Positions 5,378 through 27,997 of a stretch of DNA of 64,000 nt are shown one piece after another. Where the stretch lies: contig JBGARZ010000023.1 of the NCBI GenBank assembly GCA_044229975.1, positions 32,001 to 96,000 of the forward strand. Reading direction: 5' to 3'. The notes below the pieces were generated by a model, which did no database searches, had not been told where the DNA came from, and saw only the letters and a list, made by a program, of their open reading frames with translations. The position numbers and the translations under genes are program-made. The number at the start of each line of letters is the position of its first letter. The stretch's first letter is position 1. The stretch comes from Polyangiales bacterium. GTDB taxonomy: Bacteria > Myxococcota_A > Polyangia > Polyangiales > Ga0077539.

Positions 5378-5443
5378 CGGAAATGCGAGTGCTTTGATAG
5401 GGCAGTCTCGGAGTGTGCTGGCGCACCTCATTGGGAGGACATC

Positions 5444-5749: not shown

Positions 5750-5947
5750 CGAAGAGGCGGACCTCCTCGTCGGAAGCCCGCATGTAGAGAGCGAGTGCGC
5801 GCGTTGGCGAGGTTTCTTCCGGGGGGTGTCGCCATCGAAATCCGTCGAGGTGCGACGGAGGCAACGTATCGGGGATCGTCCAAGCTGCGAAGGCCCGATC
5901 GCCGCGAGGCGTGCCGCACCTGCAACCGTTGGGTGTACCTTCCCGGC

Positions 5948-7348: not shown

Positions 7349-7657
7349 GGCGTTCAGCGATACCCGACGTACGACGCAGTTGCCCGTTGGCTTGTGACGT
7401 CAATCCCTCTAGAAGGCGTTACTTCTTGCCATCATAAAGGCAAGATATCCTCCGTCTGGATCCCTCCTAATCCGGGGCCGAGGGGCGCGAAGCGGAACCG
7501 ACGGCCTGTAGAGCACCTCTACAGAATGCCTCAGGCCGACAAATTAGCTAACGATTATAGCAAGTTATCGGCATGGCTCCACCGGGGTCTGCCGGAATCT
7601 GGCCGCTCGTGCTTCCACCGGGGTCTGCCGGAATTTGGCCGATCGCTCGGCCGGGCC
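7349..7657. repeat. Origin-like element copy 1 (palindromes, AT-rich stretch, two iterons); inverted homolog of 12127-12464
   Basis: Aligns by eye to the reverse complement of 12127-12464; iterons ccaccggggtctgccggaat(c/t)tggccg at 7579 and 7615; palindrome CTGTAGAG-cac-CTCTACAG at 7506-7524. Confidence 0.8.
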
Positions 7658-7665
7658 ACCGTCTG

Positions 7666-9181
7666 CTACCGCCCACTCAGTCGGGCGACAGCTTCTTCGA
7701 GCGCGCGTCCCATCTCCGCCTCGGGGTCCGCTTCGGCCCGGATCACGCTCCGCGTCCCGACCCCAAGAGTTTGGGTCACCTGGACCTGAGTCCAGCCCTT
7801 GGACCTGCGCCATGCGCGCAGCTCGCTGCCCGTCGGGATCGAGGGCACTGGGGCGGCTCGACGGGCGGGAGGTGGTGGATCAGGCGGTCGCGGACCCACT
7901 GGGGGGGTAGAGGTGACAGCGGCCCCCGAGCGTCCGTTCGCCGCCCGCTTGACACCATCGCACCTCGCCCAGACCTTCGACGCGTTGGAGTTCGGCCAAG
8001 TCGCGCTCGAGGGACGTCCAGGCGCGACCCGGCTTGTTGGAGTCGAACTTGATGCCCGCGGTCTCGAGGAGTCCCTGGCCGGTGAGCGTGACGCACTCCC
8101 GGCCCTTCGCGAGGTCCCAGCGCCAGTGGATCGGGAGGATCAGTCCCAGGGCGAGGGCGCAGGGGTGGCGCACATGGTCGATGCGCGCGAGGTCGGCCGG
8201 GGCGGGTGCCCAGAGTGATCCCAGGGTGCCGTCGCGGTCCCGGACACCCTCGTAGAGCGCGGGGTGGATGGCCAGCACGAGCCCCTCCAGCGCCCACTCG
8301 GAGTCGTAGATCGCCTCGGCCCGCTGCGTGATGCTGAGCACGGGGCCGCGCATCCGCAGCTCCCCGCTGCGGTGGTAGATGGCCAGTTCGAGCCGCGTCA
8401 GCGCTTCGACCTCGTCGGCGACGACCTTACGCACGGAGTCGTCGCGGCGCGCGCGGTCGGAGTACCCGAGCGCGTCCATGTGCGCCTCGATTTTCCACCG
8501 CACGAACCCCGTTCGCCCCTCCGTGGTGAGCAGCCGGTGCCAGGCCGCCCAGTGCCGGAGCCCCTGCCACCCGCACCACGCCCTCACGGCGTGGATGATC
8601 CGCTCGGGGAGTTCTCGGACGTCCAGCTGCAAGCGCACCTGCCGGGTGGGGGCGAGGATCTCGGCCCACCCGTCCATGACCGGCGTCTTGTGCGGTTGCC
8701 TGTCTTTCGGGCGGTCGCGCCAGCCGTTGAGCAGCGCGTGGTGCGCGGGACCCGCGTCGAGTGCCATGAACGGCCGCTCGCGGTCGCGCTGGGCCGCGCG
8801 GACCGCGTGAGCCGAGAGCGCCGACAACGCCAGGACCCTCGCCAGCTCCCAGACCCTGGACAGGAAGTCCTGCTCGCCCGCGACCCCTTGCTCGGCGGCC
8901 ATGACCAGCGAGGCTGCACCCCACGTCCAGTCGAAGGCCGCCCCGCCGCGGATTCCGGGAAGGGTCGCCGGTCTGTCCGGTGTACCGGTTCCCCGATCGA
9001 CTGGGCGGTTCGCGCCGTTGGCTTGGAGCGCGAGGACGGTGCTGAACACCTCGCCGCGCGCTTCCAGATCGCTGCGAAGGTCGGCGAGGCCTTCCGGGCC
9101 GCTCGCCGTGGCCAGGAGCCGGTCGATCACCAGGCCGAGGTCCTTGTCCGACACCAGGGCTCGAAGCGCGTTCCGCAGCAC
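7666..9181 (-). pseudogene. Frameshifted paralog of the putative Rep-HTH protein at 12751-14397
   Basis: Strong similarity to 12751-14397 (ELPERI.HA..AW..WQGLRHWAA; IHPALYEGVR; ALALGLILPI.WRWD); frameshift at the G-run near 7900 and again near 7850; HTH in a separate frame; 5' end abuts an ATPase fragment. Confidence 0.8.
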
Positions 9182-9924: not shown

Positions 9925-11448
9925 TTAGGGGGGTCGAGTCGGCGACTGTGACCCTGACGGCCCATGCTTCCGCGGCGGGGACCGACGGCGAGCCGGGACG
10001 ATCAGTCCCAGGACTGCCAGCACGAGCGACGCGCCACCCCCACCGGGCGCGGCGTGCGCCCCCGCGCGGCAGTTGCACCCGTCGCGCGGCGCTGGTGCGC
10101 CAACGGCGTCGAGCACGGTGTCGGGGGCATCGAGCACCCGGCCCGCGTCGCGGGCGTCGGCCCCGCCGAGATCCTCAGACACGTCGGGCGCGGCGCCGAG
10201 GTCCGCGGGCAGCGTCCCGGCGTCGAGCGGCGCCTGCATCCCGCTCGCGTCGAAGACGGCGGCATCGTGGAAGACCGGCGCGCGCGGCGCGCTCGCGTCG
10301 ATGCTCCGAAGCGGCGCCGAGACCGCCGACCAGAAGTCGGCGCACGTCGCCCCGACGCTGGCGTCGCCGCACATCGGAGAGGTGCCGGTGAGCCGACGTA
10401 GCGAGAGCAGCGGGTCGATGTGCTCGCCGCCGTCGTGGGAGTAGCCCAGCGCGAATCCGTCAATCACCTCGTCGGCGCACACGAAGAGCAGCCCGGCGTG
10501 ATAGCGCAGGCACTTCACACCAACGTCGCCACCGACACGCGTCCACGGGCCACCGCGCACCGATCGGCGGATGCCCTCGGCGCGAGCGGAGCTCGCGGTC
10601 CAAACGGTCTCGCCGTCGTCGGAGAGCGCAAAGCCCACCATCTCCTCCGACGTCTCCCCGATGGGGCGTAGGGTCAACCCGCCGTCATCGCTGCGCAGCA
10701 ACACCGTCCCGAGACCACGGGTACCTCGCACGTACACCACGTCGGGCCGGCGCGGATCGACGGCAGCGAGGAATACCCCATGGGCGCCGGCAAAGTCCCG
10801 CGCGACCTCGCGCACCGAGCGCCCGCCGTCGTCACTGCGCAGAAGAACCGGGATGCCGCCGCGAACATAGGCCGTCACGTAGACTCGCCGCGGGTCGTTG
10901 GGCGCCACGTCCGCGGTCTCGCTGAAGTACCCCATCAGCCGCGCGCCAGCTTCCCAACTCCGCCCGCCGTCGGACGAGAGCACCAACACGTCGTCGCCGG
11001 TGGGCCCGGCCAACGCAACCATGGCGCGCCCGTCGGCGGTGTGGGTAATGTCGGCAAAGCCCCGCGTGGGCGCGCCCGCCGGACGCGTCCAGCGACAGTA
11101 CGCCCCGTTGCTGGATGCGAGCCCGGTGAAGGTTGCGATCACCACGGTGCCGTCGGCGCCGATGGAGAGCGACGGATCGGCAGCGCCAGGGGCATTGAAG
11201 CCCTCCTCACAAACCCAATCCCACTGCCGCCCGCCGTCTCGCGAGAGCAGCAGACCGAAGGTCGTGCGCAGCGCTAGGACGTCGTTGGTCGCGCCCGGGC
11301 CCGCGACGAAGTATCCCGCTGCGGGGAAGCGCCCGTTGGCCTGCGCCTCGCCCGCGAAACCGAGAGCCAGCGCCAGACCCAGTGCCCCCACCCTACCCCG
11401 CACCGCTCCCCCGCACATCCAATGCCCACCCGCCGTTGGTGCTGTCAT
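9925..11448 (-). CDS. Secreted Asp-box/BNR beta-propeller protein with MYXO-CTERM-like tail (paralog 4)
   Basis: GGGAG RBS before ATG 11448; AQA-NGRFPAAGYFVAGPG; closely similar to paralogs 1 and 2; DGCNC-TM-RRR tail. Confidence 0.85.
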   Translation of the reverse strand: MTAPTAGGHWMCGGAVRGRVGALGLALALGFAGEAQANGRFPAAGYFVAGPGATNDVLALRTTFGLLLSRDGGRQWDWVCEEGFNAPGAADPSLSIGADGTVVIATFTGLASSNGAYCRWTRPAGAPTRGFADITHTADGRAMVALAGPTGDDVLVLSSDGGRSWEAGARLMGYFSETADVAPNDPRRVYVTAYVRGGIPVLLRSDDGGRSVREVARDFAGAHGVFLAAVDPRRPDVVYVRGTRGLGTVLLRSDDGGLTLRPIGETSEEMVGFALSDDGETVWTASSARAEGIRRSVRGGPWTRVGGDVGVKCLRYHAGLLFVCADEVIDGFALGYSHDGGEHIDPLLSLRRLTGTSPMCGDASVGATCADFWSAVSAPLRSIDASAPRAPVFHDAAVFDASGMQAPLDAGTLPADLGAAPDVSEDLGGADARDAGRVLDAPDTVLDAVGAPAPRDGCNCRAGAHAAPGGGGASLVLAVLGLIVPARRRSPPRKHGPSGSQSPTRPP

Positions 11449-11514
11449 CCCTACTCCCGCGATCCTGACACGGAATGCCCGGCTTCCGCCCCGGACAAGG
11501 GCTCGATGACTTCC

Positions 11515-11531
11515 TACTATCCGTCGTAGTA
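11515..11531. promoter_or_regulatory. Palindromic operator-like site TACTA-N7-TAGTA
   Basis: TACTATCCGTCGTAGTA in an AT-rich intergenic patch upstream of paralog 4. Confidence 0.45.
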
Positions 11532-11589
11532 TTTTCGCGACTCGCGCGGACGTTCCGCGCCAGGAGACGGACGGAACGTGACCAAACTG

Positions 11590-11824
11590 CAGTCTGACCT
11601 GCGGCGCGCTCACGCTCGTCGGCTGGGTGGCCGGGAAGCTGGGCGCCCCTCCCTCACCTGCAACGTGCCCTTCTGGCTCGCGTACGCGGCGGGCGGGTGG
11701 TTCGCGCTGCGTAAAGCGGTGCTCGTCATCCGCGCGAAGAAGTTCGAGATCGACTTCCTCATGCTGGTGGCCGCCGCGGGCGGGGGCGCTCGGGGAGTGG
11801 TTCGAGGGGGCGCTGCTGCTCTTC
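11590..11824 (+). pseudogene. N-terminal transmembrane fragment of a heavy-metal P1B-type ATPase
   Basis: LAYAAGGWFALRKAV..FEIDFLMLVAAAG / GALGEWFEGALLLF, split by a frameshift and then truncated. Confidence 0.75.
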
Positions 11825-11826
11825 CC

Positions 11827-12125
11827 CGCCGCGTGCTTCCACTGCGACCCTCTGCTGGTGGAGGGGTGTTGACCCCGATCCGGCGTGGCATCAGGTCGTC
11901 GAGCTGTTGAACTCCCCGTGATCCTGCGCGAGGTGACCAGTGGGTCCGCGACCGCAGCACGGCGCAGCCACGCCCGACGACACCACCGACCCGTAGCGGA
12001 TCGGCGAAACCTCTCCAGACAGCGACTCAGCAAGGGCGCCCGTACATGTGCGCGGCGGGCCTCGGACGCAGCTGCTCGGGGGCGACCTCGCGGCGCTCAC
12101 GCCATGGGTGCCGCCAAAGCACAGA
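11827..12125 (+). pseudogene. Highly decayed third copy of the rep-like gene
   Basis: QWVRDR at 11938 matches PQWVRDRL of both rep paralogs; DPLLVEG resembles HPALYEG; lies next to iterons in the same geometry as the other copies. Confidence 0.45.
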
Positions 12126-12126
12126 G

Positions 12127-12464
12127 GCCCGGCCACACGATCGGCCAAATTCCGGCAGACCCCGGTGGAGGATTCGGCCAGCTTCCGGCAGATCCTGGTG
12201 CCAGATCGGCCAAATTCCGGCAGACCCCGGTGGGGACATGTCGATAACTTGCTAGAATCGTTACCTAATTTTCTAAACCAAGGCCTTCTGTACAGGTACT
12301 CTACAGAGCCGTCGGTTCCGCTTCGCTCCTCTCGGCCCCGGATTAGGAGGGATACGGCCGAAGGATGTCTTGCCTTCATGACGGCAAGAGGCAACGCCTT
12401 CCAGATGGAGTGACGTCACGAGATAGCGGGCAGTGGCGTGGTACACCGGGTATCGTTGAACGCC
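12127..12464. repeat. Origin-like element copy 2 (three iterons, AT-rich stretch, palindromes)
   Basis: cggcca(aa/gc)ttccggcaga(c/t)cc(c/t)ggtg at 12142, 12175 and 12207; AT-rich 12242-12280; inverted homolog of 7349-7657. Confidence 0.8.
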
Positions 12465-12600
12465 CCTCGTTTCGCAGCGAAACCGTAGGCGTCCACCCGC
12501 CTTTCCATGTAGACGTCATTCCTTCCTGACGTCACGAAGGCAAGCCTTCGTTCCGTCACCTTATGTGCCGGACCGTCCTCCAGACGGGCCGAGCACCAGA

Positions 12601-12830
12601 AGGTTCTCCTCAGAGGAGAACCTCAGAGAGGACGTCAGAAAGTTGATTTCTCCTGTACTTCCAATGACTTGCAACAGGGCCTTCCGCAGGATCTGCCGGA
12701 TTCCTGCCGGTTCACCCGCAGGATCTGCCGGATTCCTGCCGGTTCATCCGCTAGGTCTGCCGGATTCCTGCCGGTCCACCCCTCCTGGCCAGTTCATCCG
12801 CAGGGTCTGCCGGATTTCTGCCGGTCACCT
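12601..12830. other. Putative replication origin of the intact replicon: perfect palindrome, AT-richer stretch, four iterons
   Basis: AGGTTCTCCTC-A-GAGGAGAACCT at 12601-12623; ccgcaggatctgccggattcctgccgg-like units at 12684, 12716, 12748 and 12798 (32-bp period for the first three). Confidence 0.7.
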
Positions 12831-14397
12831 GCCGGTCGAGACCCGCCCGGATGGCTCGCCCGAGCGGCTCGTCAGGCGCCGCCTCGGCTCCCCGAATGGT
12901 CCTCTCCCCCACGCCCAGCATCTTCGCCGCTTGCGCCTGCGTCCAACCTTGCTGCAAACGCCAGGCGTGTAGTTCGCCACCTGTTAGCAACAAGGGCGTC
13001 GCGAGCTGCTCGGCCGGCTCGATTCCATGAACCAATCGGTCACGGACCCACTGCGGCGGGTAGAGGTGGCAACGCCCGGTACGGGACCGCGCCTCGTTCG
13101 GGTTCCACCGGGCGAGCCCGAGTCCCCCCACGCGCTGCAGCTCCGCGAGGTTGCGGTCGAGCGCCGTCCAGGCCCTCCCGGGGTCGTGCGAAGACACGGG
13201 GATCCCAGCCGTGTCGAGGAGGCGCTCTCCCGTGAGGGTCAGATGATCCAACCCGTCGGCGGTGTCCCATCTCCACCGGATCGGCAGGATCAGTCCGAGG
13301 GCGAGCGCGTACGGGAAGCGGGCGTGGTCGATCGTCGCCAGCTCGGTAGGAGCCGGGGCCCAGAGCCTCCCGATGGAGCCGTCGGCGCGGCGGACCCCCT
13401 CGTACAACGCCGGGTGGATGACGAGCTCGAGCCCCTGGAGCGCCCACTCGGACCCGCGCAGGGCCTCGCCGCGCTGGGTCACGGCGAGAACTGGGCCGCG
13501 CAGGCGGAGGGTGCCGTCTGAGTTGTAGACGGCGACCTCCATGCGCGTGAGGGCTTCGACCTCGGCGGCGACGGTCGCCCGCAGCTCGGGCGTTCGCCGC
13601 GAGCGGTCGGCGTAGCCGAGGGCGTCGAGGTGGTCTTCGAGCGACCAGCGGATGCGCCCCGTACGTCCGGCCTCGGTGAACAGGCACTGCAGCGCGGCCC
13701 AATGCCGGAGCCCCTGCCACGACCGCCACGCTTTGATGGCATGAACGATCCGCTCGGGCAGCTCCTGGACGTCGAGCCGTAGCCCGAGCTGTTTGCTGGG
13801 GTGGAGGATCTCGGCCCACCCTTCGCGCTGGGTCGTCGTGTAGGGACGCCGACGATTCTTCGGCAGGTCGCGCCACCGGTCGATCAGCGAGTGGTGAACG
13901 TTGCCGGCGTCCAGCGCTATGAAAGGCCGCGCTCGGTCGCGTTCGATCTCGCGCCACGCGAGGTAGGCGCGGGCCGCGAGTGCGACAGAGATGGGCGGTT
14001 CATCGTCCGCGTCGTCGCGGCCGCCCGAGGCGAAGAGGCCGCGGATGCGGTCGCAGCAGGCAGCCGCTGCGGCGGGGTCCGGCGCCCGGTCGCCGAGCCA
14101 GGCGACGACATCGGCGGGGGCGGCGGCCAGCGGCCAGAGCGGCAGGGCAGAGCCGCCCTCCACGCTGACCTCGATGGCCATCCAGACGGTCGGGTCGGCG
14201 CCGAGTTCGGCGCCCGCCGCCGTCAGCGCGGCGAGGTGCGGCTCGGTGTCGGAGAGGCCGGAGGCGCGCACCCGATCGACCACCGCCGCGCGCACGGCAT
14301 CAGCGACCAGCGTTCGGAGCGCGCCGTCGAGCGCGTCGAGGTCGGCTCGCACGAGCAGAGCACGGGCGTCGGAGCGGCGCACGACGAGAGGGGTCAT
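12751..14397 (-). CDS. Putative plasmid replication initiator with C-terminal XRE-type HTH
   Basis: Intact ORF downstream of parA and its partner; ends within the iterons; C-terminal TGGELHAWRLQQGWTQAQAAKMLGVGERTIRGAE HTH; Rep function inferred from context. Confidence 0.65.
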   Translation of the reverse strand: MTPLVVRRSDARALLVRADLDALDGALRTLVADAVRAAVVDRVRASGLSDTEPHLAALTAAGAELGADPTVWMAIEVSVEGGSALPLWPLAAAPADVVAWLGDRAPDPAAAAACCDRIRGLFASGGRDDADDEPPISVALAARAYLAWREIERDRARPFIALDAGNVHHSLIDRWRDLPKNRRRPYTTTQREGWAEILHPSKQLGLRLDVQELPERIVHAIKAWRSWQGLRHWAALQCLFTEAGRTGRIRWSLEDHLDALGYADRSRRTPELRATVAAEVEALTRMEVAVYNSDGTLRLRGPVLAVTQRGEALRGSEWALQGLELVIHPALYEGVRRADGSIGRLWAPAPTELATIDHARFPYALALGLILPIRWRWDTADGLDHLTLTGERLLDTAGIPVSSHDPGRAWTALDRNLAELQRVGGLGLARWNPNEARSRTGRCHLYPPQWVRDRLVHGIEPAEQLATPLLLTGGELHAWRLQQGWTQAQAAKMLGVGERTIRGAEAAPDEPLGRAIRAGLDRQVTGRNPADPADELARRGGPAGIRQT

Positions 14398-14447: not shown

Positions 14448-14843
14448 TCAGGCCCGGAGTCGGGCGCGCAAGAGGGCCTTCAAGTCGGCCTCGGACTTCG
14501 CTTCGCTCAGGTCGAGACCCTCGCTCTCCAGCGCATCGACGAGCGCCCGTAGGATCTCCGCCCGCCGGATGGCGGCGCCGGTCTTGGCCCGGATGTCGTT
14601 TGCCAGGCGGTCGAGGAACACGATCTGTCTGTTGAAGAGGACCACGGTGACCTTGGTCCATTCCTCGTGGGTGGCAGGTCGCCCCAGGGCGGGTGCAGCC
14701 GCCTTCACGGCAGTTGGTTCGACCAGCATCGGTGGGGCCGGCTCAGCTGCCAGCGTCGCTGCCGTTTCGGGCTCGGCGGGCGCCGCCTCTGCTGCGGTGG
14801 CCGAGAAGATGTTCATCTTGCCCAGCCTGCTCGGCTTGTTCAT
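14448..14843 (-). CDS. ParG-like ribbon-helix-helix partition partner
   Basis: Directly after parA; flexible Ala/Pro/Glu N-terminus, then KVTVVL strand and two helices (RAEILRALVD); GAGGA RBS. Confidence 0.65.
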   Translation of the reverse strand: MNKPSRLGKMNIFSATAAEAAPAEPETAATLAAEPAPPMLVEPTAVKAAAPALGRPATHEEWTKVTVVLFNRQIVFLDRLANDIRAKTGAAIRRAEILRALVDALESEGLDLSEAKSEADLKALLRARLRA

Positions 14844-14878: not shown

Positions 14879-15652
14879 TTACTTCTTGCCGTCTTGACGG
14901 CACCTTTGCAAGACCTCAGCAGCGAGCCGGCGATAGGCGTCGGCGCCGCTTGAGTTCGGGTCGTGCCCGAAGATCGTCTCGCCGAAGCTCGGGGCCTCCG
15001 AGAGGCGGACGTTGATCGGAATCTCTGTCTTGAAGACGCGCTCGCCGTAGTGCCCTCGGATGAGGTCGATGACCTCCCCGGTGACCTTCGGCCGACGGTC
15101 CACCTGGGTGAGCACCAGTCCCAACAAGGTGGCCTTTGCACCGGTGCCCCGGCGAAGCAGTTCCGTGGCCTCCATCAGGTTCACGAGTCCCTCGACGGCC
15201 AGGTACTGGGGTGTGACCGGCACCAGGAAGGCGTCCGCGGCCACCAGGGCGTTGATGGGCACCATCGAGAGCGAGGGAGGGCAGTCGAGGAGGATGAAGG
15301 CGTAGTCGCCTCTCACCGGCGCCAGGGCCTCCACCAGACGGCGCTCGCGTCCCTTCACGTCGGCGAGGGCGAGGTCGGCGTTGGCCAGGGCCATCGAGCC
15401 AGTGAGCAGGTCGAGGCCCTCGACGGCCGTCGGACGGATCGCGTCGCGAATCGGCAGCCCGTCGAGCAGGACCTCCGCCGACGAGGGGGCGAGCTTGTCG
15501 CGCGCGACCCCGAGCGAGAAGGACGCCGACCCCTGGCTGTCCAGATCGGCTAGCAGCACGCGCCGCGTCTTCGTGGCGAGCCCCGCCGCGAGGTTGACCG
15601 CCGTGGTCGTCTTGGCGACGCCACCCTTGTTGTTGACCAGCGCGATGATCAT
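14879..15652 (-). CDS. parA: ParA/Soj family partition ATPase
   Basis: KGGVAKTTT deviant Walker A, DLDSQG, ILLDCPP, NALVAAD, IPINVRLSEAP; no N-terminal HTH (type Ib). Confidence 0.95.
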   Translation of the reverse strand: MIIALVNNKGGVAKTTTAVNLAAGLATKTRRVLLADLDSQGSASFSLGVARDKLAPSSAEVLLDGLPIRDAIRPTAVEGLDLLTGSMALANADLALADVKGRERRLVEALAPVRGDYAFILLDCPPSLSMVPINALVAADAFLVPVTPQYLAVEGLVNLMEATELLRRGTGAKATLLGLVLTQVDRRPKVTGEVIDLIRGHYGERVFKTEIPINVRLSEAPSFGETIFGHDPNSSGADAYRRLAAEVLQRCRQDGKK

Positions 15653-15921
15653 GCCATCCGTCCTTCCGCCTAGACGGCTGGGTAGCATGACGCCCTGACT
15701 TCTTTCCATCCCAAAGTGGACCGGCATACTGTGGTCGTCGAAGGGGACCTTCCCCACCTTCGCCATGCCCACAACTACCCCTGCGAGGTCGGCGTAGAGC
15801 TCTGCGCGTGCCAGGCTCCGCCGATTCACATGCAGCTCCATGCGGGTAGACCAGGCGCACAAGCCGTTGCCACAACCGTCCCCTGCGCTTGCGGCGCCGA
15901 CCAGATCACGGGGGTGGTGCG

Positions 15922-18201
15922 ATGAGCCTCCCCGTCCAGGAACGTCGCGGGGTGTCCCCCGTCGCGCGATCGGGGTTCGCGCGGGACACGCGTATCGAAC
16001 CCAATGCCCTCACCGCAATCAAGCAGGAGGCGGCGTTTGGTTGGCTCTGCTGCCAGCTGTTGCCCGGGATGTCGAGCATTCGCGTGCTCCCCGGCGAGGT
16101 GGGCACCGAGAGGGACTGGGTCAGGCCCGCGATCCAATCGAACGTGGACCCTCGGGACGCCGTCGCCGCACACCTCCTCGCGGGCGACAGAAGGAACTCG
16201 GTGTCGTTGCCGGGGTACACGCGAGAGCCCGTGCGGTCGGTCGCGTTTGCGTACTCGAAAAGGGCGCGCACCTCGCGCCTGACAATCCACCTGTCTGGCC
16301 GCGTTCCAGGCTACGAGGTCGGCACGTTCGTCCAGCGCCTCGGCGACCGAGTGGGCCACAGCCGCCTGTTGGTCACCTCGGTCAGCGCCATGGTCGGCGG
16401 TCGCAGGGAGCACCGATGCCACGTCCGCGTGCCGGAGATGGAGGTGTTATGCGCGGTGACCGCGGTCTCTCAACTGCTCGAAGACTGCGGCTTCGCGCAG
16501 CGTAGCGGGGTGGTCGAGGTGTTCCCGGACAGCCGGTTTGCCGGCCTGCCCTTCGGGCTGCTCGAGAACGAGTTGCTGCGCTACGGCGACGGCGGTCTGG
16601 AGTCCGAGCCCGAGTGCGGGTGGCGGCGGCTGGTCGCGGAGTTTCAGGCGTTGGAGACCCTCGACTTCGAGCGTCTTCTTCCGCCCTCCTCCTCCGACCC
16701 AGAAGTCACCACATCTCGCGCCGCCGACCCGCTCGCTCCGGCGACTGTCGCCCCTCGTGCTGCCGACCCACCGATCTCCTCGACGGCGCCGTCCGTGGCT
16801 CCCGGGAGCGTTGATGCCTACTTCGAGCTGGTCTGTCACGGGGTCGCCCTCGTGTCCGTGCAGCCAGAGTCCTGCCCATGGACCCCGGAGGGGGGCTGGA
16901 AGTGGTTGAAGACGCGAATCGACGTGAAGCGTTCGGTTGTCGCGCACCTGCTGGCCTCCCAGACGGGGCAGCCCTCGCGGCTCGGGCGACGCGGCATCCG
17001 CGCGTCCGGGCTCTCGTACCGGCCCGATGCGACGACGTCCCGCATCACGATCGACCTGGACGGCAAGCACGGGTACGAGCCCGCCAAGGTCGTCGCTGCT
17101 CTCGCCGCCATCGTGGGACGCGACCGCCTGATGGTGACCGCGAGCAGCGGCTCCCCCGGGCACTACCATTGTCACGCCCGGGTCCCACCGATGCGCGTGG
17201 ATGAGACGGTCGCGGCGTCGCGCGCGCTGCTCGACAGGGCCGGGTTCAAGTGGAAGCTGGGTGGCGCGGAGACCTACCCGAGCACTGGCAACTGTCGCCT
17301 GCCGTTCGGCCTGGGCGGGTGCGAGCTGTTCGAGGACGAGCAACTCCAGGTCGGCCATCAGGAGACGTGGCAGGAGCTCACGAAGCGGCTCTGTGGGATG
17401 CCGACGCTGGTGTTCCAATCGGGGTCGCCGCCTGGTAGCCGAGCGCGTCGGCACGTCCGCTCGCGCGCCCGGGCCCGTAACGCCGAGACGGCTGCCCGCA
17501 TCGAGAGGTGGCGCGCGAACGGGGTCGAACGCCACGAGCGAAACCAAGCGCTGTTCGACCTCGTGGTGAACGGTCGTTGTCGGGGCCTCGCGGAAGATGA
17601 GGTCCTTCGCGAGCTCCAGGGATGGATCGACGGAGGCGGCCTGGCGCGGAGCGCCGTGGCGCGGAAACCCGGCGGCATCGCCAAGCAGCGTAACCAGGTT
17701 CTCCCGGATGTTGTGGAGCGGGTGTATGGCTACCCTCCCCCCGCGAAGCAGAAGGCCAACCTCACGGAGACAGAGATCGCCTGGGTCGTCGAGATCGCCA
17801 AAGAGCGATGCCCCAAACGGCGCGCGCACGCGGTGGTGCTCCTGCTCGACGTGCTGCCATGGTTCAAGGCCGCGTGGCTCGAGGGCAGGACGGACGTCAC
17901 GCTCGGGCAGAAGGAGTGGGCCCGAACCCTCGGGCGACGGGGGGATGGCTACGCGTTGCTCCGGCGACAACTGCACCTGTTCAGGCAGACGTCCCACTAC
18001 GTGATTGGCGAGCGCTCGACCACCTGGTGCCTGACCGAGCCCGTCCCCTTCGAGTCTCGCCATCCGACCGAGCGTCTGGTTTCGACGAACCCGCGTCCCG
18101 CGACGAAGCGCACTGGTTCGAAGCCCTCCCGCCTCCAAAAGACGGCGTGGGTTCTGGCGGCCGCTGAGCGGGTAGCTCGCGGCGTCGTCCGGGATGGGTG
18201 A
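15922..18201 (+). CDS. Primase-polymerase-like protein with tandem AEP-like domains and a PriCT-like region
   Basis: Second domain has ITIDLD, SSGSPGHYHCH and CRLPFG; first domain is a clear internal duplicate with LTIHLS; later HERNQALFDL resembles PriCT-1. Confidence 0.65.
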   Translation: MSLPVQERRGVSPVARSGFARDTRIEPNALTAIKQEAAFGWLCCQLLPGMSSIRVLPGEVGTERDWVRPAIQSNVDPRDAVAAHLLAGDRRNSVSLPGYTREPVRSVAFAYSKRARTSRLTIHLSGRVPGYEVGTFVQRLGDRVGHSRLLVTSVSAMVGGRREHRCHVRVPEMEVLCAVTAVSQLLEDCGFAQRSGVVEVFPDSRFAGLPFGLLENELLRYGDGGLESEPECGWRRLVAEFQALETLDFERLLPPSSSDPEVTTSRAADPLAPATVAPRAADPPISSTAPSVAPGSVDAYFELVCHGVALVSVQPESCPWTPEGGWKWLKTRIDVKRSVVAHLLASQTGQPSRLGRRGIRASGLSYRPDATTSRITIDLDGKHGYEPAKVVAALAAIVGRDRLMVTASSGSPGHYHCHARVPPMRVDETVAASRALLDRAGFKWKLGGAETYPSTGNCRLPFGLGGCELFEDEQLQVGHQETWQELTKRLCGMPTLVFQSGSPPGSRARRHVRSRARARNAETAARIERWRANGVERHERNQALFDLVVNGRCRGLAEDEVLRELQGWIDGGGLARSAVARKPGGIAKQRNQVLPDVVERVYGYPPPAKQKANLTETEIAWVVEIAKERCPKRRAHAVVLLLDVLPWFKAAWLEGRTDVTLGQKEWARTLGRRGDGYALLRRQLHLFRQTSHYVIGERSTTWCLTEPVPFESRHPTERLVSTNPRPATKRTGSKPSRLQKTAWVLAAAERVARGVVRDG

Positions 18202-18491: not shown

Positions 18492-18986
18492 CTACTGGCG
18501 CGATCGGGGAGGGCGAGGGGGCGGCTGGAAGAGCTCGGGCTGGTCGTCCGCTGCCTCCGCGCGCCGCTTCGGGCGGTGGGGGCGCGCCTCCGCGCGCTCG
18601 GGAGGCGGGAGACGGACGGGCGGCCAGGGAGGCGGCACGGCGGCCTCTTCCTCTTCGGCGTCGGGCGCGCGGACGCGCTCGTCGCGCGGGCGCAGGAACA
18701 CCACTCCCGCCGGCGGGGCGAACGCGTCGGGCGCCTCGTCGAGCAGCGCCCGCCCGGCGAGCCGCTCAAGCTCCGCGGCTGCGGCGAGCTCACGGGCGAC
18801 GTGGTCCAGGTAGGAGCGCGCGCGGCGTAGCCGCGTGACGAGGTCGGCGAGCTCGGGGCGGAGCTCGACGAGGCGGGCCACACGGGGATGGGCGCAGTCC
18901 GCCGCGAGCACCGCGGGCTCGGTCGAGCCGCAGCGGAGGCACAGCTCCACCGTCGTCGTGATGGGGCGGACGCGCTGGTCGGTCAC
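18492..18986 (-). CDS. Hypothetical protein with CxxC...CxH motif and a coiled segment
   Basis: ORF with GC-biased codons; ELCLRCG..DCAH; start uncertain. Confidence 0.5.
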   Translation of the reverse strand: MTDQRVRPITTTVELCLRCGSTEPAVLAADCAHPRVARLVELRPELADLVTRLRRARSYLDHVARELAAAAELERLAGRALLDEAPDAFAPPAGVVFLRPRDERVRAPDAEEEEAAVPPPWPPVRLPPPERAEARPHRPKRRAEAADDQPELFQPPPRPPRSRQ

Positions 18987-20806: not shown

Positions 20807-22708
20807 CTACTTCGTCCACTCGGTGGTCTCGACCACGGGGAGGTGGAGGGCGCGCTCGCGCTCGAGGTCGAGGTTGCCGACGTGGAGCGACAGGGGCGCC
20901 TGGACCCACTTGTAGATCGACTGCACGAACAGCCGGACGAACTTCTCGACCCACCCGCGGATCGCGGCGGGCGCCTCCCCCGGGAACATCACCAGGAGGG
21001 CCTCGACGACCTCGCCCGGCGAGAGCTTCTCGGCGGCGTAGAGGTGGAAGCAGGCGTCGAGCATGCGGAAGGGCATGAGCTCGTCTTCGCCTCGCTGGTC
21101 GGGCGCGAGCTCGGGGCCCGCCGGGGCCGAGAGCGTGAGCCGGATGCCCTCGAATCCGTGCCGCTCGAGGAGGTATTCGAGGAGGTAGACGACGACGGTC
21201 TTGGGCACGTTGGCGAGCACCGCGAGGGCGCCCTCCAGGTCGCCGCCGATGGTGGTGTAGCCCATCGCCTTCTCGCTCATGTTCCCCGTCTGGAGGAAGA
21301 GCATCCCGCTCGTGTTCGACCAGTTCCACATCCGCTGCGCGCGGATGCGGGCCTGGACATTCTGCTCGGTGACCGGGGTGAGCGCGCCGCCCACCATGGC
21401 GCGCGCGGCCTCCGCCTCGCGCAGGAACGCCTCCTCGATGGGCACGACCCGGAAGGGCACCCCGAGCTCCTCGCAGATGGTGCGGGCGCAGGTGCTCGTG
21501 TGGTCCGAGGAGTAGCGCGAGGGCATGTAGAAGGCCCGCAAGAGCTCGCCCGCCTTCGAGCGCCGCGCCCCCTCGTCGAGGCCGGCGAAGCGCCTTTGCA
21601 CGTAGCGCCAGGCGACCAGCAGCGTGAGGAGCGAGTCGCGCCCCCCCGAGAGCGCGATGCCGAGGCCCGTGAACGCCCGGGTCTTCTCGAAGTAGTCGCC
21701 CACGCCGAGCGCGAGGGCGTCGAGCAGGTCGTCGCAGAACTCGTCGCGCGCCGGACGGGGCGCGCCCACCGGCGGCAGGAAGAAGCTCCCGTGGGCGGGC
21801 GCGGGGTAGGCGAGGCCCGAGCGGTCGGCCGTGCGCCCGGCGACCTCCAGGACCGTGGGGCGCGCCGCGGCGGCGCGGGCGTCGAGGCAGTCGCCGCGCC
21901 AGGTGGTGTTCTCGGTGCGCAGTCGCCGCGTGCGGTCCAGGTCCACCGTCGCCGCGGCCCACGACTCGCGCCAGCGCGGCGCCTCGAGCACCGGGCGGCC
22001 GTTCTGGAAGACGAAGCCCCCGCCGTCGAAGATGAGCCCGTCGTTGGCGCCCACGCTGGTCACGTAGGCGAGGGCGCACTGGTTGTCGGCCGAGCGCGTC
22101 GCGAGCATCTCCCGGCGCGTGCCGAGGACCCCCGCGCGGTAGGGCGAGCCGGAGATGTTCACGACGAGCTCGGCGCCCGCGTACGCGCGGCGGCGCATCG
22201 GGCCGTCGGGCGACCACACGTCCTCGCAGAGCTCGACCGCGAGCGCGCCGAAGTCGAACGCGAACACGAGGTCGCCGAGGGGCACGCCCCCGAGGTCGTC
22301 GAGCTGGCCGGGGGCGCCGCGGGAGAAGGTGCGCGCCTCGTGGAAGACGTTGTAGGTGGGGAGCTTCTCCTTCGGGACCACCCCGACGATGCGGCCGCGG
22401 TGGACGACGGCGGCGGCGTTGTAGAGGTGGCCGCCGCGCGCGACGACGAGGCCGAGGACCCACACGGTGCCGGCCCCGGCGGTCCCGGCCGCGAAGCGCT
22501 GGAGCTGCTCCCACTGGGCCGCGACGAAGCCGCGCCACTGCACGAGGTCCTCGGCGGGGTAGCCGCCGATCACCTGCTCGGGGAAGGCGCCGACGGTCGC
22601 GCCCGCGGCGGCCATCTCGCCCGCCATGCGGAGGCAGCGGTCGGTGTTCGAGCGGACCGAGCCCACGGTGGCGTTCACGCTGCCGAGGGCGATCTTGATG
22701 AGCCTCAT
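20807..22708 (-). CDS. nadE: Glutamine-dependent NAD+ synthetase
   Basis: Nitrilase domain with FPE / KEKLPTY / LCEDVW triad; synthetase domain with SGGRDS, NVQARIR and TGNMSE. Confidence 0.95.
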   Translation of the reverse strand: MRLIKIALGSVNATVGSVRSNTDRCLRMAGEMAAAGATVGAFPEQVIGGYPAEDLVQWRGFVAAQWEQLQRFAAGTAGAGTVWVLGLVVARGGHLYNAAAVVHRGRIVGVVPKEKLPTYNVFHEARTFSRGAPGQLDDLGGVPLGDLVFAFDFGALAVELCEDVWSPDGPMRRRAYAGAELVVNISGSPYRAGVLGTRREMLATRSADNQCALAYVTSVGANDGLIFDGGGFVFQNGRPVLEAPRWRESWAAATVDLDRTRRLRTENTTWRGDCLDARAAAARPTVLEVAGRTADRSGLAYPAPAHGSFFLPPVGAPRPARDEFCDDLLDALALGVGDYFEKTRAFTGLGIALSGGRDSLLTLLVAWRYVQRRFAGLDEGARRSKAGELLRAFYMPSRYSSDHTSTCARTICEELGVPFRVVPIEEAFLREAEAARAMVGGALTPVTEQNVQARIRAQRMWNWSNTSGMLFLQTGNMSEKAMGYTTIGGDLEGALAVLANVPKTVVVYLLEYLLERHGFEGIRLTLSAPAGPELAPDQRGEDELMPFRMLDACFHLYAAEKLSPGEVVEALLVMFPGEAPAAIRGWVEKFVRLFVQSIYKWVQAPLSLHVGNLDLERERALHLPVVETTEWTK

Positions 22709-22760
22709 CACGCGCCGGTTTCGGCGGCGGCGGGGAACTCGCTGGAGGGCGAGCGGAGGA

Positions 22761-22880
22761 TCAGGGCGCGGGCGTCGCGGCGCGCGGGGCGGGGGCCTCG
22801 TGTCGATCCCCGCAGGCACAGGCGGGGCACCCGAGCATGACCAGAAGCGCGAGGCGAACCAATCCGATCGAACCCTTCAT
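22761..22880 (-). CDS. 39-aa lipoprotein-like micro-ORF (CPACAC)
   Basis: AAGGA RBS; MKGSIGLVRLALLVMLGCPACACGDRHEAPAPRAATPAP*; below the ORF-track length cutoff. Confidence 0.4.
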   Translation of the reverse strand: MKGSIGLVRLALLVMLGCPACACGDRHEAPAPRAATPAP

Positions 22881-22915: not shown

Positions 22916-24868
22916 CTACGACCGTAGCATTCGGAGGCCGTTCGCGATCACCAGGAACTCGCTCACCTCGTGCGCGAGCACCGCGACGGGGAGGGCGAAG
23001 ACGCCGCCCACGGCCCCCACCGCGAGCACCGCGATGACGACGATGGAGAGCACGACGTTCTGCCGGATGACCCCCCAGGTGCGCCGACTGAATCCGACGA
23101 GGTACGGGAGGCGCATGAGGTCGTCGGTCATCAGGGCGACGTCGGCCGTCTCGAGCGCGACGTCGGTGCCGGCCGCGCCCATCGCGATGCCGACCGCGGC
23201 GGCGGCGAGCGCGGGCGCGTCGTTCACGCCGTCGCCGACCATCGCGACCTCCCCGTAGCGCGCGCGGAGCTCGGCCACGCGCCGGGTCTTGTCCTCGGGG
23301 CTCAGGTCCGCGAACACCTCATCGACGCCCGCCTTCGCGCCGATCGCGCGGGCGGCGCGGGCGTTGTCGCCCGTGAGCATGACGACGCGGGTGATGCCGG
23401 CGCGCTTGAGCGCGGCGACGGCCTCCGCGGCCTCGGGCCGCAGCGGGTCCGCGATCGCGACGAGCCCGTGGAGAGCCTCCTTCGTGCCGAAGAGGACCAC
23501 GGTGTTGCCGGCCTCCTGGAGGCGCTCGACGTGCGCCTCGGCGCCCGCCAGGGGGGTGCCCAGTTCGGCGAAGAGCTTGGGGCTGCCGACGTAGAGCCGG
23601 CGCCCCCCGACCGTCCCCTGGGCGCCGAGCCCGGTCATCGACTGGAAGTCCTCGGCCGGCGCGGCCTCGACGCCCGCGGCCTTGGCGCGCGCGAGGATCG
23701 CCCGGGCGAGCGGGTGCTGTGAGCGGGCCTCGAGCGCGGCCGCCTCCGCGAGGAGGCTCCGCTCGTCGTGGCCCTCGAAGGGCACCACCTCGGTCACCTC
23801 TGGCCGACCCACGGTGAGGGTCCCGGTCTTGTCGAGCGCGACGACCCGGATCTTGGCGAGCTCCTCCAGGTGGACGCCGCCCTTGATGAGGATGCCACGC
23901 CGCCCCGCGGTCCCGATCGCCGCGACGAGCGTGATCGGGACCGAGATCACGAGGGCGCAGGGCGCCGCCGCGACGAGGAAGACGACCGCCCGGTGGAGCC
24001 ACGCCGAGGCCCCGAGCCCGAGGGCGATGGGGACGACCGCGAGGAGCGCCGCGGCCCCGAGCACGGCGGGGCTGTAGCGCCGACCGAAGCGCTCGATGAA
24101 GCGCTGGCTCTTGCCCTTCTTCGCCTGCGCCGCCTCGACGAGTTGGATGATGCGCGAGATCGTGTTCTCCGCGAAGGCCTTGGTCGCCCTCACGGCGAGC
24201 ACGCCCTCGCCGTTGATCGACGCGGCGAACACGGCGTCCGCGGGCGCCTTGTCCACCGGCACCGACTCGCCCGTCACGGGCGCCTGGTTGACGGCCGAGC
24301 GGCCCTCGATCACCTCGCCGTCGGTCGGGACGGCCTCGCCGGGCCGGACGATGAACACGTCGCCGGGCCGGAGCTGCTCGACCGGGACGCGCTCCTCCTT
24401 GTCTCCGCGGCGCAGGAGGGCGGTCTTCGGCGCGAGGTCCATGAGCGCGCGGATGGCGTCGCGCGTGCGCGCCGCGGTGTACCCCTCGGAGGCCTCGCTG
24501 ATCGCGTAGAGGAAGACGAGCGCCGCGGCCTCGGCCCACTCGCCGAGGAGCCCCGACGCCACGGCCGCGACGGTCATCAGGAGCTCGATCCCGACCTCCC
24601 GCTCCTTCACGAGCTCCTCGAGGGCCTCGCGGGCGAAGAAGTACCCGCCCACCGCGACGGCGGCGACGTAGAGCCCCGTGGCGACGCCGGCCGGAAGGCC
24701 GATCTTCCCGCCCACGTAGCCCACGGCGAGGAGGACCCCCGCGGCGGCCGCCGAGAGCACCTTCGGGTTCCGCCATGGCTTCGGCATGGGGCCCTTCGGC
24801 TTCGCGTGGCAGCCGTCGCTGCACGCCTCGTCCTGGTCTTCCTCGCGGTCGCTGGTCGTGTCGGTCAT
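22916..24868 (-). CDS. Heavy-metal P1B-type ATPase (Zn/Cd/Co, P1B-4-like)
   Basis: TGES, APC in the ion-binding helix, DKTGTLT, HPLA, GDGVNDAPAL, C-terminal HE; no HMA domain; ATGA overlap with czcA. Confidence 0.92.
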   Translation of the reverse strand: MTDTTSDREEDQDEACSDGCHAKPKGPMPKPWRNPKVLSAAAAGVLLAVGYVGGKIGLPAGVATGLYVAAVAVGGYFFAREALEELVKEREVGIELLMTVAAVASGLLGEWAEAAALVFLYAISEASEGYTAARTRDAIRALMDLAPKTALLRRGDKEERVPVEQLRPGDVFIVRPGEAVPTDGEVIEGRSAVNQAPVTGESVPVDKAPADAVFAASINGEGVLAVRATKAFAENTISRIIQLVEAAQAKKGKSQRFIERFGRRYSPAVLGAAALLAVVPIALGLGASAWLHRAVVFLVAAAPCALVISVPITLVAAIGTAGRRGILIKGGVHLEELAKIRVVALDKTGTLTVGRPEVTEVVPFEGHDERSLLAEAAALEARSQHPLARAILARAKAAGVEAAPAEDFQSMTGLGAQGTVGGRRLYVGSPKLFAELGTPLAGAEAHVERLQEAGNTVVLFGTKEALHGLVAIADPLRPEAAEAVAALKRAGITRVVMLTGDNARAARAIGAKAGVDEVFADLSPEDKTRRVAELRARYGEVAMVGDGVNDAPALAAAAVGIAMGAAGTDVALETADVALMTDDLMRLPYLVGFSRRTWGVIRQNVVLSIVVIAVLAVGAVGGVFALPVAVLAHEVSEFLVIANGLRMLRS

Positions 24869-27800
24869 GGCGCCTGGTCCTGCGGTGGGGTGGGTCGGGG
24901 GTCCGTGGCTCGGCGGCCGCCGAGCCAGGCGTAGAGCGCGGGAAGCACGAGGAGGGTGAGGAGCGTCGAGGAGACGATCCCGCCGATCACGACCGTCGCG
25001 AGGGGGCGTTGCACCTCCGCGCCGGCGCCGTCGGAGAGGGCCATCGGCACGAACCCGAGCGAGGCGACGAGGGCCGTCGTCAGCACGGGGCGCATCCGCA
25101 CGAGCGCCGCCTCGCGAACCGCGCGGGCCGGGTCGTCGCCCGCCTCCTCGCGGTGGCGCGCCGTCGAGACGAGCACCAGGCCGTTCAGGACGGCGACGCC
25201 GAAGAGGGCGATGAAGCCCACCGCCGCCGAGATCGAGAAGGGCATCCCGCGCGCGGCGAGCGCGAGCACCCCGCCCGTCGCGGCGAAGGGCACGTTCAGG
25301 AAGATGATCGCGGCCGGGCGGGCCGCGTTGAAGCTCGTGTAGAGCAGCACGAAGATGAGCCCGAGCGCGAGCGGGATCACGACCGCGAGCCGGCGCGTCG
25401 CGGCCTCGAGCTGCTCGAACTGCCCGCCCCACTCCACGCGGTAGCCGGGCGGGAGGCGCACCTCGCGCCCGACCCGCGCGCGGGCCTCGGCCACGAAGGA
25501 GGCGAGGTCGCGCCCGCGGACGTTGGCCTGGATCGCCACGCGCCGCGACACGTCCTCGTGGCTCACCTGGGCCGGGCCGGGGTCGTCCGTGATCGTCGCG
25601 ACCTGCGCGAGCGGCACCGTGCGCCCGTCGAGGGTCGCGACGGGCAGGTCGCTCAGGGCGTCGGGGGCGGCGCGCGTCGCGGGGTCGAAGCGCACCTGGA
25701 TCGCGTACGCGAGCGCCCCCTCGCGGACCTCGCCCACCGTGATCCCGCCGAGCGCGCTCACGGTGTCGAGCACGTCGCCGACGCGCACGCCGTAGCGCGC
25801 GGCCGCCCGGCGGTCGATGGCGACCCGCCGCATGGGGAGCCCGCTCACCTGCTCGGCGCGCACGTCCTGGGCGCCCGGGACGCGGCGCAGGCTGCGCGCG
25901 ATCTCGTCGGCCGACCCGCGCAGGAGGTCCAGGTCGTCGCCGAAAAGCTTGACGACGACGTCGCCGCGCGCGCCGGCGATGAGCTCCGCCATCCGCTGCT
26001 TGATGGGCTGCGAGAAGCCGAAGACGATGCCGGGAACGGCGCTCCGCACGCGCCGCTCCATGGCCTCGACCAGGTCCTCGCGGCGGCGGAAGCGCCAGCG
26101 CTCGCGCGGACGGAGCATGACGAGCACGTCGGTCATCTCGACGCCCATGGGGTCCATCGCGATCTCGCCCCGCCCGGTGCGGCAGACCACGGTCTCGACC
26201 TCGGGGAAGGACCGCAGGGCGCGCTCGAGGTCGGTCGTCTGGCGCGCGGCCTCGGGGAGCGAGGTGCTCGGCAGGCGGTAGACCTCGAGCGCCATGGCGC
26301 CCTCGTCGAGCTCCGGGATGAACTCCCCGCCGCGCGTCGCGGCGACGCCCGCGGCGAGGGCGAGCGCGGCGAGGGCGACCCCGACGGTCACCCAGCGGCG
26401 GCGGAGCGCCGCGTCGAGGAGCGGGCGGTAGGCGCGGCGCGCGGCCGCGACGAGCCAGCTCTCCTTCTCCTCGAGCCGCAGGGGCAGCAGGAGCGAGGCG
26501 AGCACGGGGGTGAGCGTGAGCGACAGCACGAAGGCCGTCGCGAGGGCGAAGATCACCGTGAGCGCCATCGGCCGGAACATCTTCCCCTCGACGCCTTCGA
26601 GGGTCAGGATCGGCAGGTAGACCAGGGCGATGATGAGCTCGCCGAAGGCCGTCGCCGAGCGCACCTCGAGCGAGGAGGCCAGCACGACCTCGTCGCGCTC
26701 CGCCGGGGTGAGCGCGCGCCCTTCCCGGGCGTGCCGCTCGGAGAGGTGCCGGACGGCGTTCTCGACGATGATGATGGCGCCATCGACGACGAGGCCGAAG
26801 TCGATCGCGCCGAGCGACATGAGGTTGCCCGAGAGGCCGGCCGCGCGCATGCCGACGAAGGCCCCGAGCATCGCGAGCGGGATCATGGCGGCGACGACGA
26901 GACCCGCGCGCACGTTTCTCAGCATGAGGAAGAGGACGAAGACGACGAGGAAACCGCCCTCGACGAGGTTCCTCGCCACCGTCGCGACGGTGCGGCGGAT
27001 GAGGTCGGTGCGGTCGTAGTAGGGCTCGATCCGCACGCCCGGCGGGAGCGTCGGCTGGATCGCCGCGACCCGCGCGCGCACCCGATCGACGACCGCGCGG
27101 GCGTTCTCGCCGAGGAGGAGGAGGGTGACCCCCGCGACGATCTCGCCCCGGCCGTCGCGCGTGACGACGCCCTGGCGCACCGCCGGCACGAAGGCGACCC
27201 GGCCGAGCTGCCGGAGGTAGACCGGCGTGCCGCCCTCGCCCAGCGCGACCACCGTGTCGCCCAGGTCGTCGAGCGAGCGGATGAGGCCGTCGCCGCGCAC
27301 GAGCACCTGCTCGCGGTGGCGCTCGAGGTACGCGCCCCCGGCGCTCCCGTTGGCGTGCTCTACCGCTTCGATGACCTCGCGGAGCGTCAGGCGGTGGGCG
27401 ACGAGGCGCGCGGGGTCGAGCTCGAGCTGGTAGGTCCTGAGCTCGCCGCCGAAGGTGTTGACCTCGATGACGCCCGGCACCGTGCGGAGCTGCGTCGCGA
27501 TGGGGCCCTCGAGGAGCGCGCGCAGCTCCATGGCCGAGCGGCCGGGGCCGCGGACCTCGAACTGGTAGATCTCGCCGAGGCCCGTGGTGATGGGCGCGAG
27601 CACGGGCTCGCCGTAGCCCGCGGGGATGGCCGCGCGGGCCTCCTGGAGCCGCTCGGAGACGAGCTGGCGCGCGCGGTAGATGTCCGCGCCGTCGGCGAAG
27701 ACGATCGTCACCTGAGAGAGGCCGAACTTCGAGACCGAGCGCACGTCCACGACCTCCGGGATGCCCGTCATCGCCCGCTCGACGGGGGTCGTGACGAAGC

Positions 27801-27993: not shown

Positions 27994-27997
27994 GGCC

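Follow-up and report, generated by a model that had tools for sequence, protein, structure and literature searches.

A predicted tandem archaeo-eukaryotic primase with one degenerate and one intact catalytic domain at a likely mobile-element locus of a Polyangiales bacterium

The window analysed here is a 64,000-nucleotide stretch of contig JBGARZ010000023.1 from a Polyangiales bacterium (GenBank assembly GCA_044229975.1). It carries a gene, present in one copy in the source genome, for P0001, a protein in which two domains resembling archaeo-eukaryotic primases (AEPs) stand in tandem. A catalytically degenerate copy (copy 1) is followed by a linker, an intact copy (copy 2), a PriCT-1-like helical domain and a predicted winged helix (Table 1). 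Alignment of residues ~70–250 with residues ~328–499 gave 34% identity over 180 columns (BLASTP E 1e-25), and the Smith-Waterman score between the two copies was 209, compared to 30.6 ± 4.9 with a maximum of 55 for 1000 shuffles. The initial annotation, made from the sequence without database searches, had listed a series of paired motifs in the two halves, all of which were found in place, including IHLS in copy 1 (16,285–16,296) and IDLD in copy 2 (17,050–17,061).

P0001 was modelled with AlphaFold2 from a 56-sequence family alignment, with both copies within one model, giving a mean predicted local distance difference test (pLDDT) score of 84.6 and a predicted template modelling (pTM) score of 0.43. 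The order of strands and helices was alike in both copies, and residues 259–291 had a pLDDT below 50, in agreement with the Pro/Ala/Ser linker proposed initially. All six Foldseek matches to the model at E ≤ 0.001 were chains of CAPP Prim-Pol. Using VIA-align, the best structural match to copy 2 was CAPP Prim-Pol (Z 14.1, root-mean-square deviation 3.3, 182 residues aligned), while copy 1 (model residues 22–243) matched LigD Pol at Z 9.1 and human PrimPol at Z 6.3. In an unbiased search of 48,161 chains the top nine rows were primase-polymerase structures and HP0184. The predicted model therefore supports an AEP fold (RRM-like) in both copies, as had been proposed.

Downstream of copy 2, PF08708 (PriCT_1) matched P0001 at E 0.015, under the curated cut-off, and the matched stretch contains the RNQALFDL motif that had been picked out as PriCT-like. 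Among the 56 family members 12 matched PriCT_1 (best E 2e-5), and in structure this domain weakly matched a PriSLX chain (Z 6.2) and the helix bundle of pRN1 (Z 4.7). The region beyond it gave no Pfam match; its predicted element order, helix-helix-strand-helix-helix-strand-strand, is that of a putative winged helix. A Walker A pattern was absent from all 10 tandem proteins, consistent with the early remark that no helicase motif is seen. Searches of whole P0001 against Pfam, NCBIfam and PHROGs gave no family match, and the 56-sequence family profile found nothing at E ≤ 10 among the PDB sequences. The parent AEP family likewise had no AEP match to Pfam, NCBIfam or PDB sequences in the scans run, with Replicase (PF03090) matching none of the 56 members at E ≤ 0.1. 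Single-sequence AlphaFold of residues 301–759 was uninformative (pLDDT 39), and modelling copy 1 in complex with the remainder of P0001 scored 0.00, gave no verdict and was used neither way.

The catalytic motifs of copy 2 were assigned from the strand order of the model and from conservation, with definitions from PMC5862659. Motif occurrences were counted in the family alignment, where 61 other domains were compared with 10 front copies (60 or 9 sequences in some columns). Motif I (hhhDhD/E), motif II (sxH, H416) and motif III (hD/E, E450) are all present in copy 2, and the PrimPol-PV1 form of motif IV (Rh after motif III, PMC5862659) is present as R459-L460; copy 1 lacks motif I. The motif I aspartate pair (D378 and D380, ITIDLDG in P0001) was found in 61/61 other domains and at neither position in any of the 10 front copies, so the early observation that only copy 2 keeps DxD holds for P0001 and its relatives. 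At the position of R459 an Arg is present in 60/60 other domains and in 3/9 front copies, P0001 having G208 there, while the position of E450 is Glu in 59 and Asp in one of 60 other domains and acidic in 9/9 front copies. The motif II His, which the initial annotation had taken as a requirement, is replaced in most of the family: 44 of the 61 other domains have Arg there and 17 have His, with no Tyr or Gln. P0001 itself has His in copy 2 and Arg in copy 1; Arg occurs in 4/9 front copies, where the motif II loop is altered, as it is in P0001.

Mutation of DxD to AxA or LxL abolishes the activity of CAPP and PolpTN2 (PMC8211822, PMC5862659), and PolpTN2 is reported to lose its activity when motif I or motif IV is mutated (PMC5862659). 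Judged by its motifs, copy 2 is very probably an active primase. A reading of its H-C-H residues as an HUH endonuclease site was rejected, as H418 is found in 15/61 and H416 in 17/61 domains and circovirus Rep matched at Z 4.5 compared to 14.1 for CAPP. The front copies still have 15 of the 31 columns conserved across the family (W, H, core Gly/Pro/Leu, LPFG), and copy 1 of P0001 retains such non-catalytic residues as W66, H84, P202 and LPFG; the remaining 16 columns vary in the front copies, mostly in motifs I, II and IV and the GGC that follows. Copy 1 could instead have acquired a changed chemistry, such as a His/Cys/Glu metal site or nucleotide binding, given that E/D199 is present in 9/9 front copies, C166 and H167 do not vary and 9/10 have His or Gln in place of the first Asp. 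The motif I replacements nevertheless vary (H, Q or G; S, P, A or Q), with Gly in P0008, unlike a conserved new active site, and copy 2 of the tandem proteins has the same unvarying Cys-His pair, which therefore marks the clade, making a new chemistry exceedingly unlikely.

The two main homolog searches gave 14 and 53 proteins, and an iterated domain profile run over 64 proteins identified 71 domains, with none in P0064. Eight proteins contained two domains by this profile. Two fragments, P0022 and P0045, were of the front type (assigned after the alignment was seen), and P0022 shares its cluster with a full tandem. When cluster members were included there were 10 full-length tandem proteins in eight clusters, with identity down to ~45% and exactly one D-x-D-G each. 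The 53 representatives at the 50% level included three full tandems and two front fragments, indicating that the tandem form is a small subclade. The ~47 single-domain relatives (P0016–P0063) carry D-L-D-G, S-G-x-x-G-R-Y-R, E-x-x-P and R-L-P-F-G motifs. No shorter protein with copy 1 alone was found at E ≤ 0.001 among 1,307 candidates; the representative search had the two short front-copy fragments.

The tandem protein is patchily distributed, being present in two of the 31 genomes of the bacterial family. A sample of 401 genomes from the phylum gave, besides the source genome, only two weak partial matches to the family profile (L008 in G128 and L009 in G157, E 2e-4 and 2e-6 over ~60 residues), both in more distant genomes. 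The source of tandem protein P0006 is labelled 'Myxococcaceae bacterium'. P0001 had no match among the PLSDB plasmids, P0018 had none among the INPHARED phages, no match was found in viral contigs, and the sequencing-run search listed no RNA dataset carrying the gene.

Among seven tandem proteins, copy 1 had a mean pairwise identity of 53% and copy 2 one of 62%; each of the two C-terminal domains reached 58%, and the linker 28%. Variation in residues 50–250 of copy 1 was taken from two public sequencing runs (X1 and X2) with one contig each, which together listed 28 distinct differences, 21 synonymous and seven non-synonymous, with no insertions or deletions. The ratio of non-synonymous to synonymous polymorphism (pN/pS) was 0.12–0.14, with p values of 8e-8 to 9e-7 (9e-7 with transition weighting), and p was 5e-5 if all five unlisted differences were counted as non-synonymous. 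Some of the differences may be errors, as run X2 had a depth of 2; taken by itself, X1 gave 10 synonymous and three non-synonymous differences, and since its three amino-acid changes match P0002 the two are not independent. Pairwise ratios of non-synonymous to synonymous substitution rates (dN/dS) against the primase gene of a second tandem locus, L005, were 0.4–0.7 for the domains and were set aside because, at this GC content, saturation of synonymous sites seems to have been reached. Purifying selection thus acts on the dead copy. The initial annotation had named the lack of an AEP fold, or a duplication unique to this genome and unconstrained, as speaking against its proposal, and neither holds.

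Low pN/pS could also arise if copy 1 were a functionless relic, kept only for the sake of the downstream primase, which N-terminal misfolding or frameshifts would ruin. Selection against misfolding alone may suffice to produce such a ratio, most relatives are without the domain, and the branches leading to dead copies are longer. A clean in-frame deletion would however shed a useless domain, and this one has been kept in eight clusters of single origin; charged surface residues are also invariant in copy 1. A relic is therefore very unlikely.

In phylogenetic trees the front copies formed one clade and the live copies another, which points to a single origin of the front copies. The front clade was sister to P0016, an intact single-domain protein, with support of 97/96, rising to 99/98 when the catalytic-motif columns were dropped and a mixture model was used. 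The approximately unbiased (AU) test rejected a single clade of both copies with p-AU 0.018 and 0.043, on 21 and 18 selected rows of 71; the 64-row tree is known as a quick tree only. The tree of the C-terminal region placed P0016 weakly as sister to the tandem proteins (83/81), and dead-copy branches were longer than live-copy branches. P0016 is a long branch, and its identity is 30–44% (by the stretch compared) to the front copies, 36–41% to the live copies and 35–49% to the clade of short proteins, so its placement beside the front copies should not be over-read. Of the internal duplication first described, the repeat itself is real, and simple or recent duplication in place is disfavoured by the trees. 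The two copies may have arisen by fusion or domain capture between sister primases, or by an early duplication with a later loss in P0016, fusion being no less likely than duplication.

The domain order of the C-terminal 460 residues of P0001 resembles that of the initiators ColE2 Rep, RepE/RepS and PrimHYQ, which combine an AEP, PriCT-1 and a helix-turn-helix (HTH) domain and have no helicase (PMC5862659, PMC4538821); the mobile-element context and the motif IV Arg are also shared, with the winged helix predicted. Prim+PriCT_1+HTH accounts for 207 of the 572 rows of the domain table in PMC5862659. P0001 differs from these proteins in the degenerate AEP placed in front, from RepE/RepS in motif III (Gln in RepE/RepS, Glu or Asp in the P0001 family) and from PrimHYQ/PrimQH in motif II, where they have His, Tyr or Gln and the P0001 family has mostly Arg, P0001 itself having His. 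Copy 2 shares the DxD motif and fold of CAPP Prim-Pol (PDB 7NQF, 7P9J), with 15% identity, and differs in that the N-terminal part of P0001 is a second AEP fold. We know of no tandem form in the DR0530-like family. This Deinococcus family is the only one named with Arg or Lys in motif II (PMC5862659) and, compared by description only, resembles the P0001 family in that respect and differs from the His of the P0001 live copy. RepB' of the plasmid RSF1010 also combines an AEP with PriCT-1, lies next to an iteron-binding initiator and gave a structural match at Z 6.6; it differs in that its motif II has Gln, it lacks an HTH and a helicase serves as its partner, and some members of its family have an N-terminal relaxase where P0001 has the dead AEP (PMC5862659). 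Non-catalytic partners aid the catalytic AEP in the case of PriL and PriX (PMC10345425), but these are helical PriCT-like folds, a role open to the PriCT of P0001 itself, while the extra part of P0001 is an AEP fold.

No tandem, duplicated or inactive AEP domains were found in the searched literature, which covered few subscription papers and no bioRxiv supplements. 'Prim+Prim' had none of the 572 rows in the domain table of PMC5862659, examined mostly by term search and for adjacent doubles only, and the available portions of PMC11161782 and PMC11338233 gave no tandem precedent. Atlas feature matches to AEP-TOTE and RepB_primase clusters were treated as leads only. The dead-plus-live AEP pair is real, conserved and selected, and belongs to a rare subclade within an unclassified AEP family whose members are likely initiator primases of mobile elements.

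Table 1. Features of the tandem primase gene and its neighbours in the window.
Feature	Position	Strand	Evidence or remark
Tandem-AEP primase gene (P0001)	15922..18201	+	759 aa; dead AEP, linker, intact AEP, PriCT-1-like, predicted winged helix
AEP copy 1 (aa 25-250), catalytically degenerate	15994..16671	+	pLDDT block means 76-97; purifying selection
Degenerate motif I of copy 1 (H123-L-S125 replacing D-x-D)	16288..16296	+	Asp at neither position in 10/10 front copies
Pro/Ala/Ser-rich linker (aa ~254-297)	16672..16800	+	Predicted disordered, poorly conserved
AEP copy 2 (aa 294-499), intact motifs	16801..17418	+	CAPP Prim-Pol match; column conservation
Copy 2 motif residues D378/D380; H416; E450; R459	17053-17061; 17167; 17269; 17296		
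PriCT-1-like helical domain (aa 512-605)	17455..17736	+	PF08708 E 0.015
Predicted winged-helix DNA-binding domain (aa 616-705)	17767..18036	+	Inferred from element order in model
Divergent parA-type ATPase gene	14879..15655	-	AAA_31 E 5.7e-49; same neighbour in L005
Small gene following parA, partition adaptor by its location only	14448..14843	-	No significant family match
Possible Rep3-like initiator (548 aa), C-terminal HTH	12751..14397	-	Context, not obligate partner
Two inverted arrays of 32-33 bp-spaced repeats	12133-12233, 12684-12779	.	Iteron-like or element-end-like
Small gene with Cys motif (CxxC...CxHP), helical, start uncertain	18492..18986	-	Adjoins primase in L005 and on 5.1-kb circle

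The order small gene, parA, divergent primase, Cys-motif open reading frame (ORF) is the same in the window and in L005 (L011 is the same DNA and was counted once), and the parA and small-gene pair is 88% identical in DNA sequence to L005. The Cys-motif ORF is 66% identical to its counterpart in L005 and 70% to that on a small circle described below; it is convergent with the primase gene in the tandem loci and co-oriented with it on the circle. Weaker relatives were found in eight other genomes of the bacterial family, and the two checked had no AEP nearby; those in G020 and G018 lie among housekeeping-type genes. Between parA and the primase gene of L005 (8,294–8,734) there is a 146-residue ORF that is absent from the window, resembles a DNA methyltransferase fragment by eye and had no NCBIfam match. 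No clear iteron array flanks the primase gene, where one 39-nt pair (18,316/18,414) was found that does not occur in L005, and no match to a sigma-70 promoter or terminator was obtained.

Beyond parA lies the 548-residue possible Rep3-like protein, an Atlas lead (Rep3_N on 13% of one cluster) which may be an unannotated initiator or mobile-element family. Its gene is present in 16/31 genomes of the bacterial family compared to 2/31 for the primase, and the copy in G002 is 91% identical with no AEP match within the 18 kb examined, so an obligate link between the two was rejected. Paralogs were seen in the window (7,880–9,181, reverse strand) and at G000:C30:134307-135446, the latter following a gene whose start resembles the DnaB helicase N-terminus by eye, and 19 matches, many partial, were found in G002. 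The repeat arrays beside the gene have the core TCCGGCAGA and flank a 50-nt imperfect inverted repeat (12,360–12,553). Further arrays are present at 7,589–7,644 of the window and at 4,880–5,100 of L005, and the 20-nt repeat unit tested occurs at only four genomic places, all on contig C29.

ORF starts read by eye on contig C29 suggested metal-efflux genes, a serine recombinase and defence-like genes, with no tRNA on the contig. The genome contained no TrwB-type coupling protein, and no cas families were seen among the neighbouring ORFs read, the nearest of which were scanned, with no dedicated cas scan run. The primase locus is likely to lie on a plasmid or an integrated mobile element. Other features of the surroundings were also read by eye. 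An AAA ATPase gene followed by a long peptidase-like gene and further ATPase and nucleotidyltransferase-like ORFs (G000:C29:108096-123000) has a defence-like appearance and adjoins the serine recombinase. A nitrilase-fold and NAD-synthetase-like gene lies past the primase region (20,807–22,819, reverse strand), followed by a cluster of heavy-metal P-type ATPase and RND efflux genes (22,916–30,349). Several secreted-looking paralogs with an ANGRFP start occur in the window (2,445–7,258 and 9,925–12,033) and on C29, C20, C26 and C32. Some of them end in what we take to be a myxobacterial sorting-like tail.

Two contigs, L001 and L002, share overlaps of 1,703 and 1,051 bp with 99.9% identity at their two ends and give an inferred circle of 5,122 bp with a single-domain AEP homolog, P0009. 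The circle carries a 241-residue serine recombinase (Resolvase E 5e-39, with a Recombinase domain), a 108-residue ORF, P0009 and the Cys-motif ORF, so that P0009 is its sole recognisable candidate for a replication gene; no Rep3-like gene is in its ORF list. A 21-nt repeat family occupies the non-coding part (L002 2219-3056), and a recombinase 43% identical to that of the circle is found at G000:C29:121614-122315. The longest contigs of the seven representatives of the closest single-domain clade, to which P0009 belongs, are 3.4–5.4 kb, compared to 52–152 kb for the tandem forms P0001, P0005, P0006, P0007 and P0065.

By analogy with ColE2 Rep, P0001 probably initiates replication of its own element, with the PriCT and HTH domains opening the DNA and no helicase taking part. 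An alternative is that it serves as an accessory primase or gap-filling polymerase for a Rep3-like initiator or for recombinase-driven integration, without defining the origin, much as RepB' primes for RepC in RSF1010. The possible Rep3-like gene and 32-bp-spaced repeats lie 1.5–4 kb away in both genomes, the closest structures (CAPP and LigD Pol) are not origin initiators, and the small circle bears a serine recombinase. This role appears distinctly unlikely given the wider occurrence of the Rep3-like gene than of the primase, the G002 copy with no AEP match in the 18 kb examined, the lack of a Rep3-like gene in the ORF list of the circle, and the PriCT and winged-helix tail, which has the layout of an initiator.

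In the mechanism proposed, recognition and opening of the origin would fall to the winged helix and PriCT-1-like domain, with no helicase involved, as their arrangement suggests by analogy with ColE2 Rep. In copy 2, D378, D380 and E450 would hold two metals and H416 and R459 would contact nucleotides, and the domain would lay down a primer for extension by host polymerases, as its motifs suggest. For copy 1 the initial annotation had suggested a DNA-binding or regulatory role. On its flexible linker, copy 1 may hold the template or the displaced strand, which is the weakest step; granted the other steps, it is rather likely that copy 1 acts as such a tethered DNA grip. The complete proposal, of a mobile-element initiator primase with a selected dead AEP as an extra tethered grip on DNA, is considered to have an even chance of being correct.

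Several observations weigh against it. Copy 1 contains 25 Lys and Arg and 24 Asp and Glu residues, compared to 24 and 18 in copy 2, and this near-neutral charge does not favour strong DNA binding. The pTM of 0.43 leaves the relative placement of the domains unset, and the best match of the winged helix, the ORC2 C-terminal domain, is weak (Z 4.7). The ~47 single-domain relatives manage without the extra domain. With a second possible initiator and its repeats near the gene in both genomes, the primase may have an accessory role. The ends of C29 do not overlap, so that its plasmid status remains predicted, and the circle, which joins contigs from two assemblies, might be an integrative element in its excised form.

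The charge of copy 1 would also fit a dead domain that acts through protein contacts, for example in dimerisation, copy-number control or interaction with ParA or host replication proteins. The tandem genes adjoin parA in both of the genomes with context, the tandem forms lie on far longer contigs than the closest single-domain clade, and the surface residues D89, R139, R143, R194 and E231 are invariant in the front copies and not across the family. The single-domain P0016, however, is also on a 55-kb contig, and W66 and H84 are retained, which would not obviously be needed for contacts with protein alone. A role of this kind is considered unlikely.

A more tentative possibility than the DNA grip itself is that P0001 is a single-chain pseudo-heterodimeric primase formed from two joined sister replicases, in which an AEP without metal ligands has become a strand-holding or origin-opening accessory. 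If true, this would be a new route to a non-catalytic primase subunit for a helicase-less replicon, inside an unclassified AEP family whose single-domain members would run small circular elements of environmental bacteria. The usual non-catalytic help for AEP primases comes from the helical PriL, PriX and PriCT, and a dead AEP fold that has been kept departs from this pattern. The single-domain relatives, including P0016 as the intact sister of the dead copy, are natural controls for the use of a primase fold without catalysis. Very few myxobacterial plasmids are known (PMC3235114, PMC11705834), and if these elements are replicons of myxobacteria-like hosts they would therefore be of value as tools.

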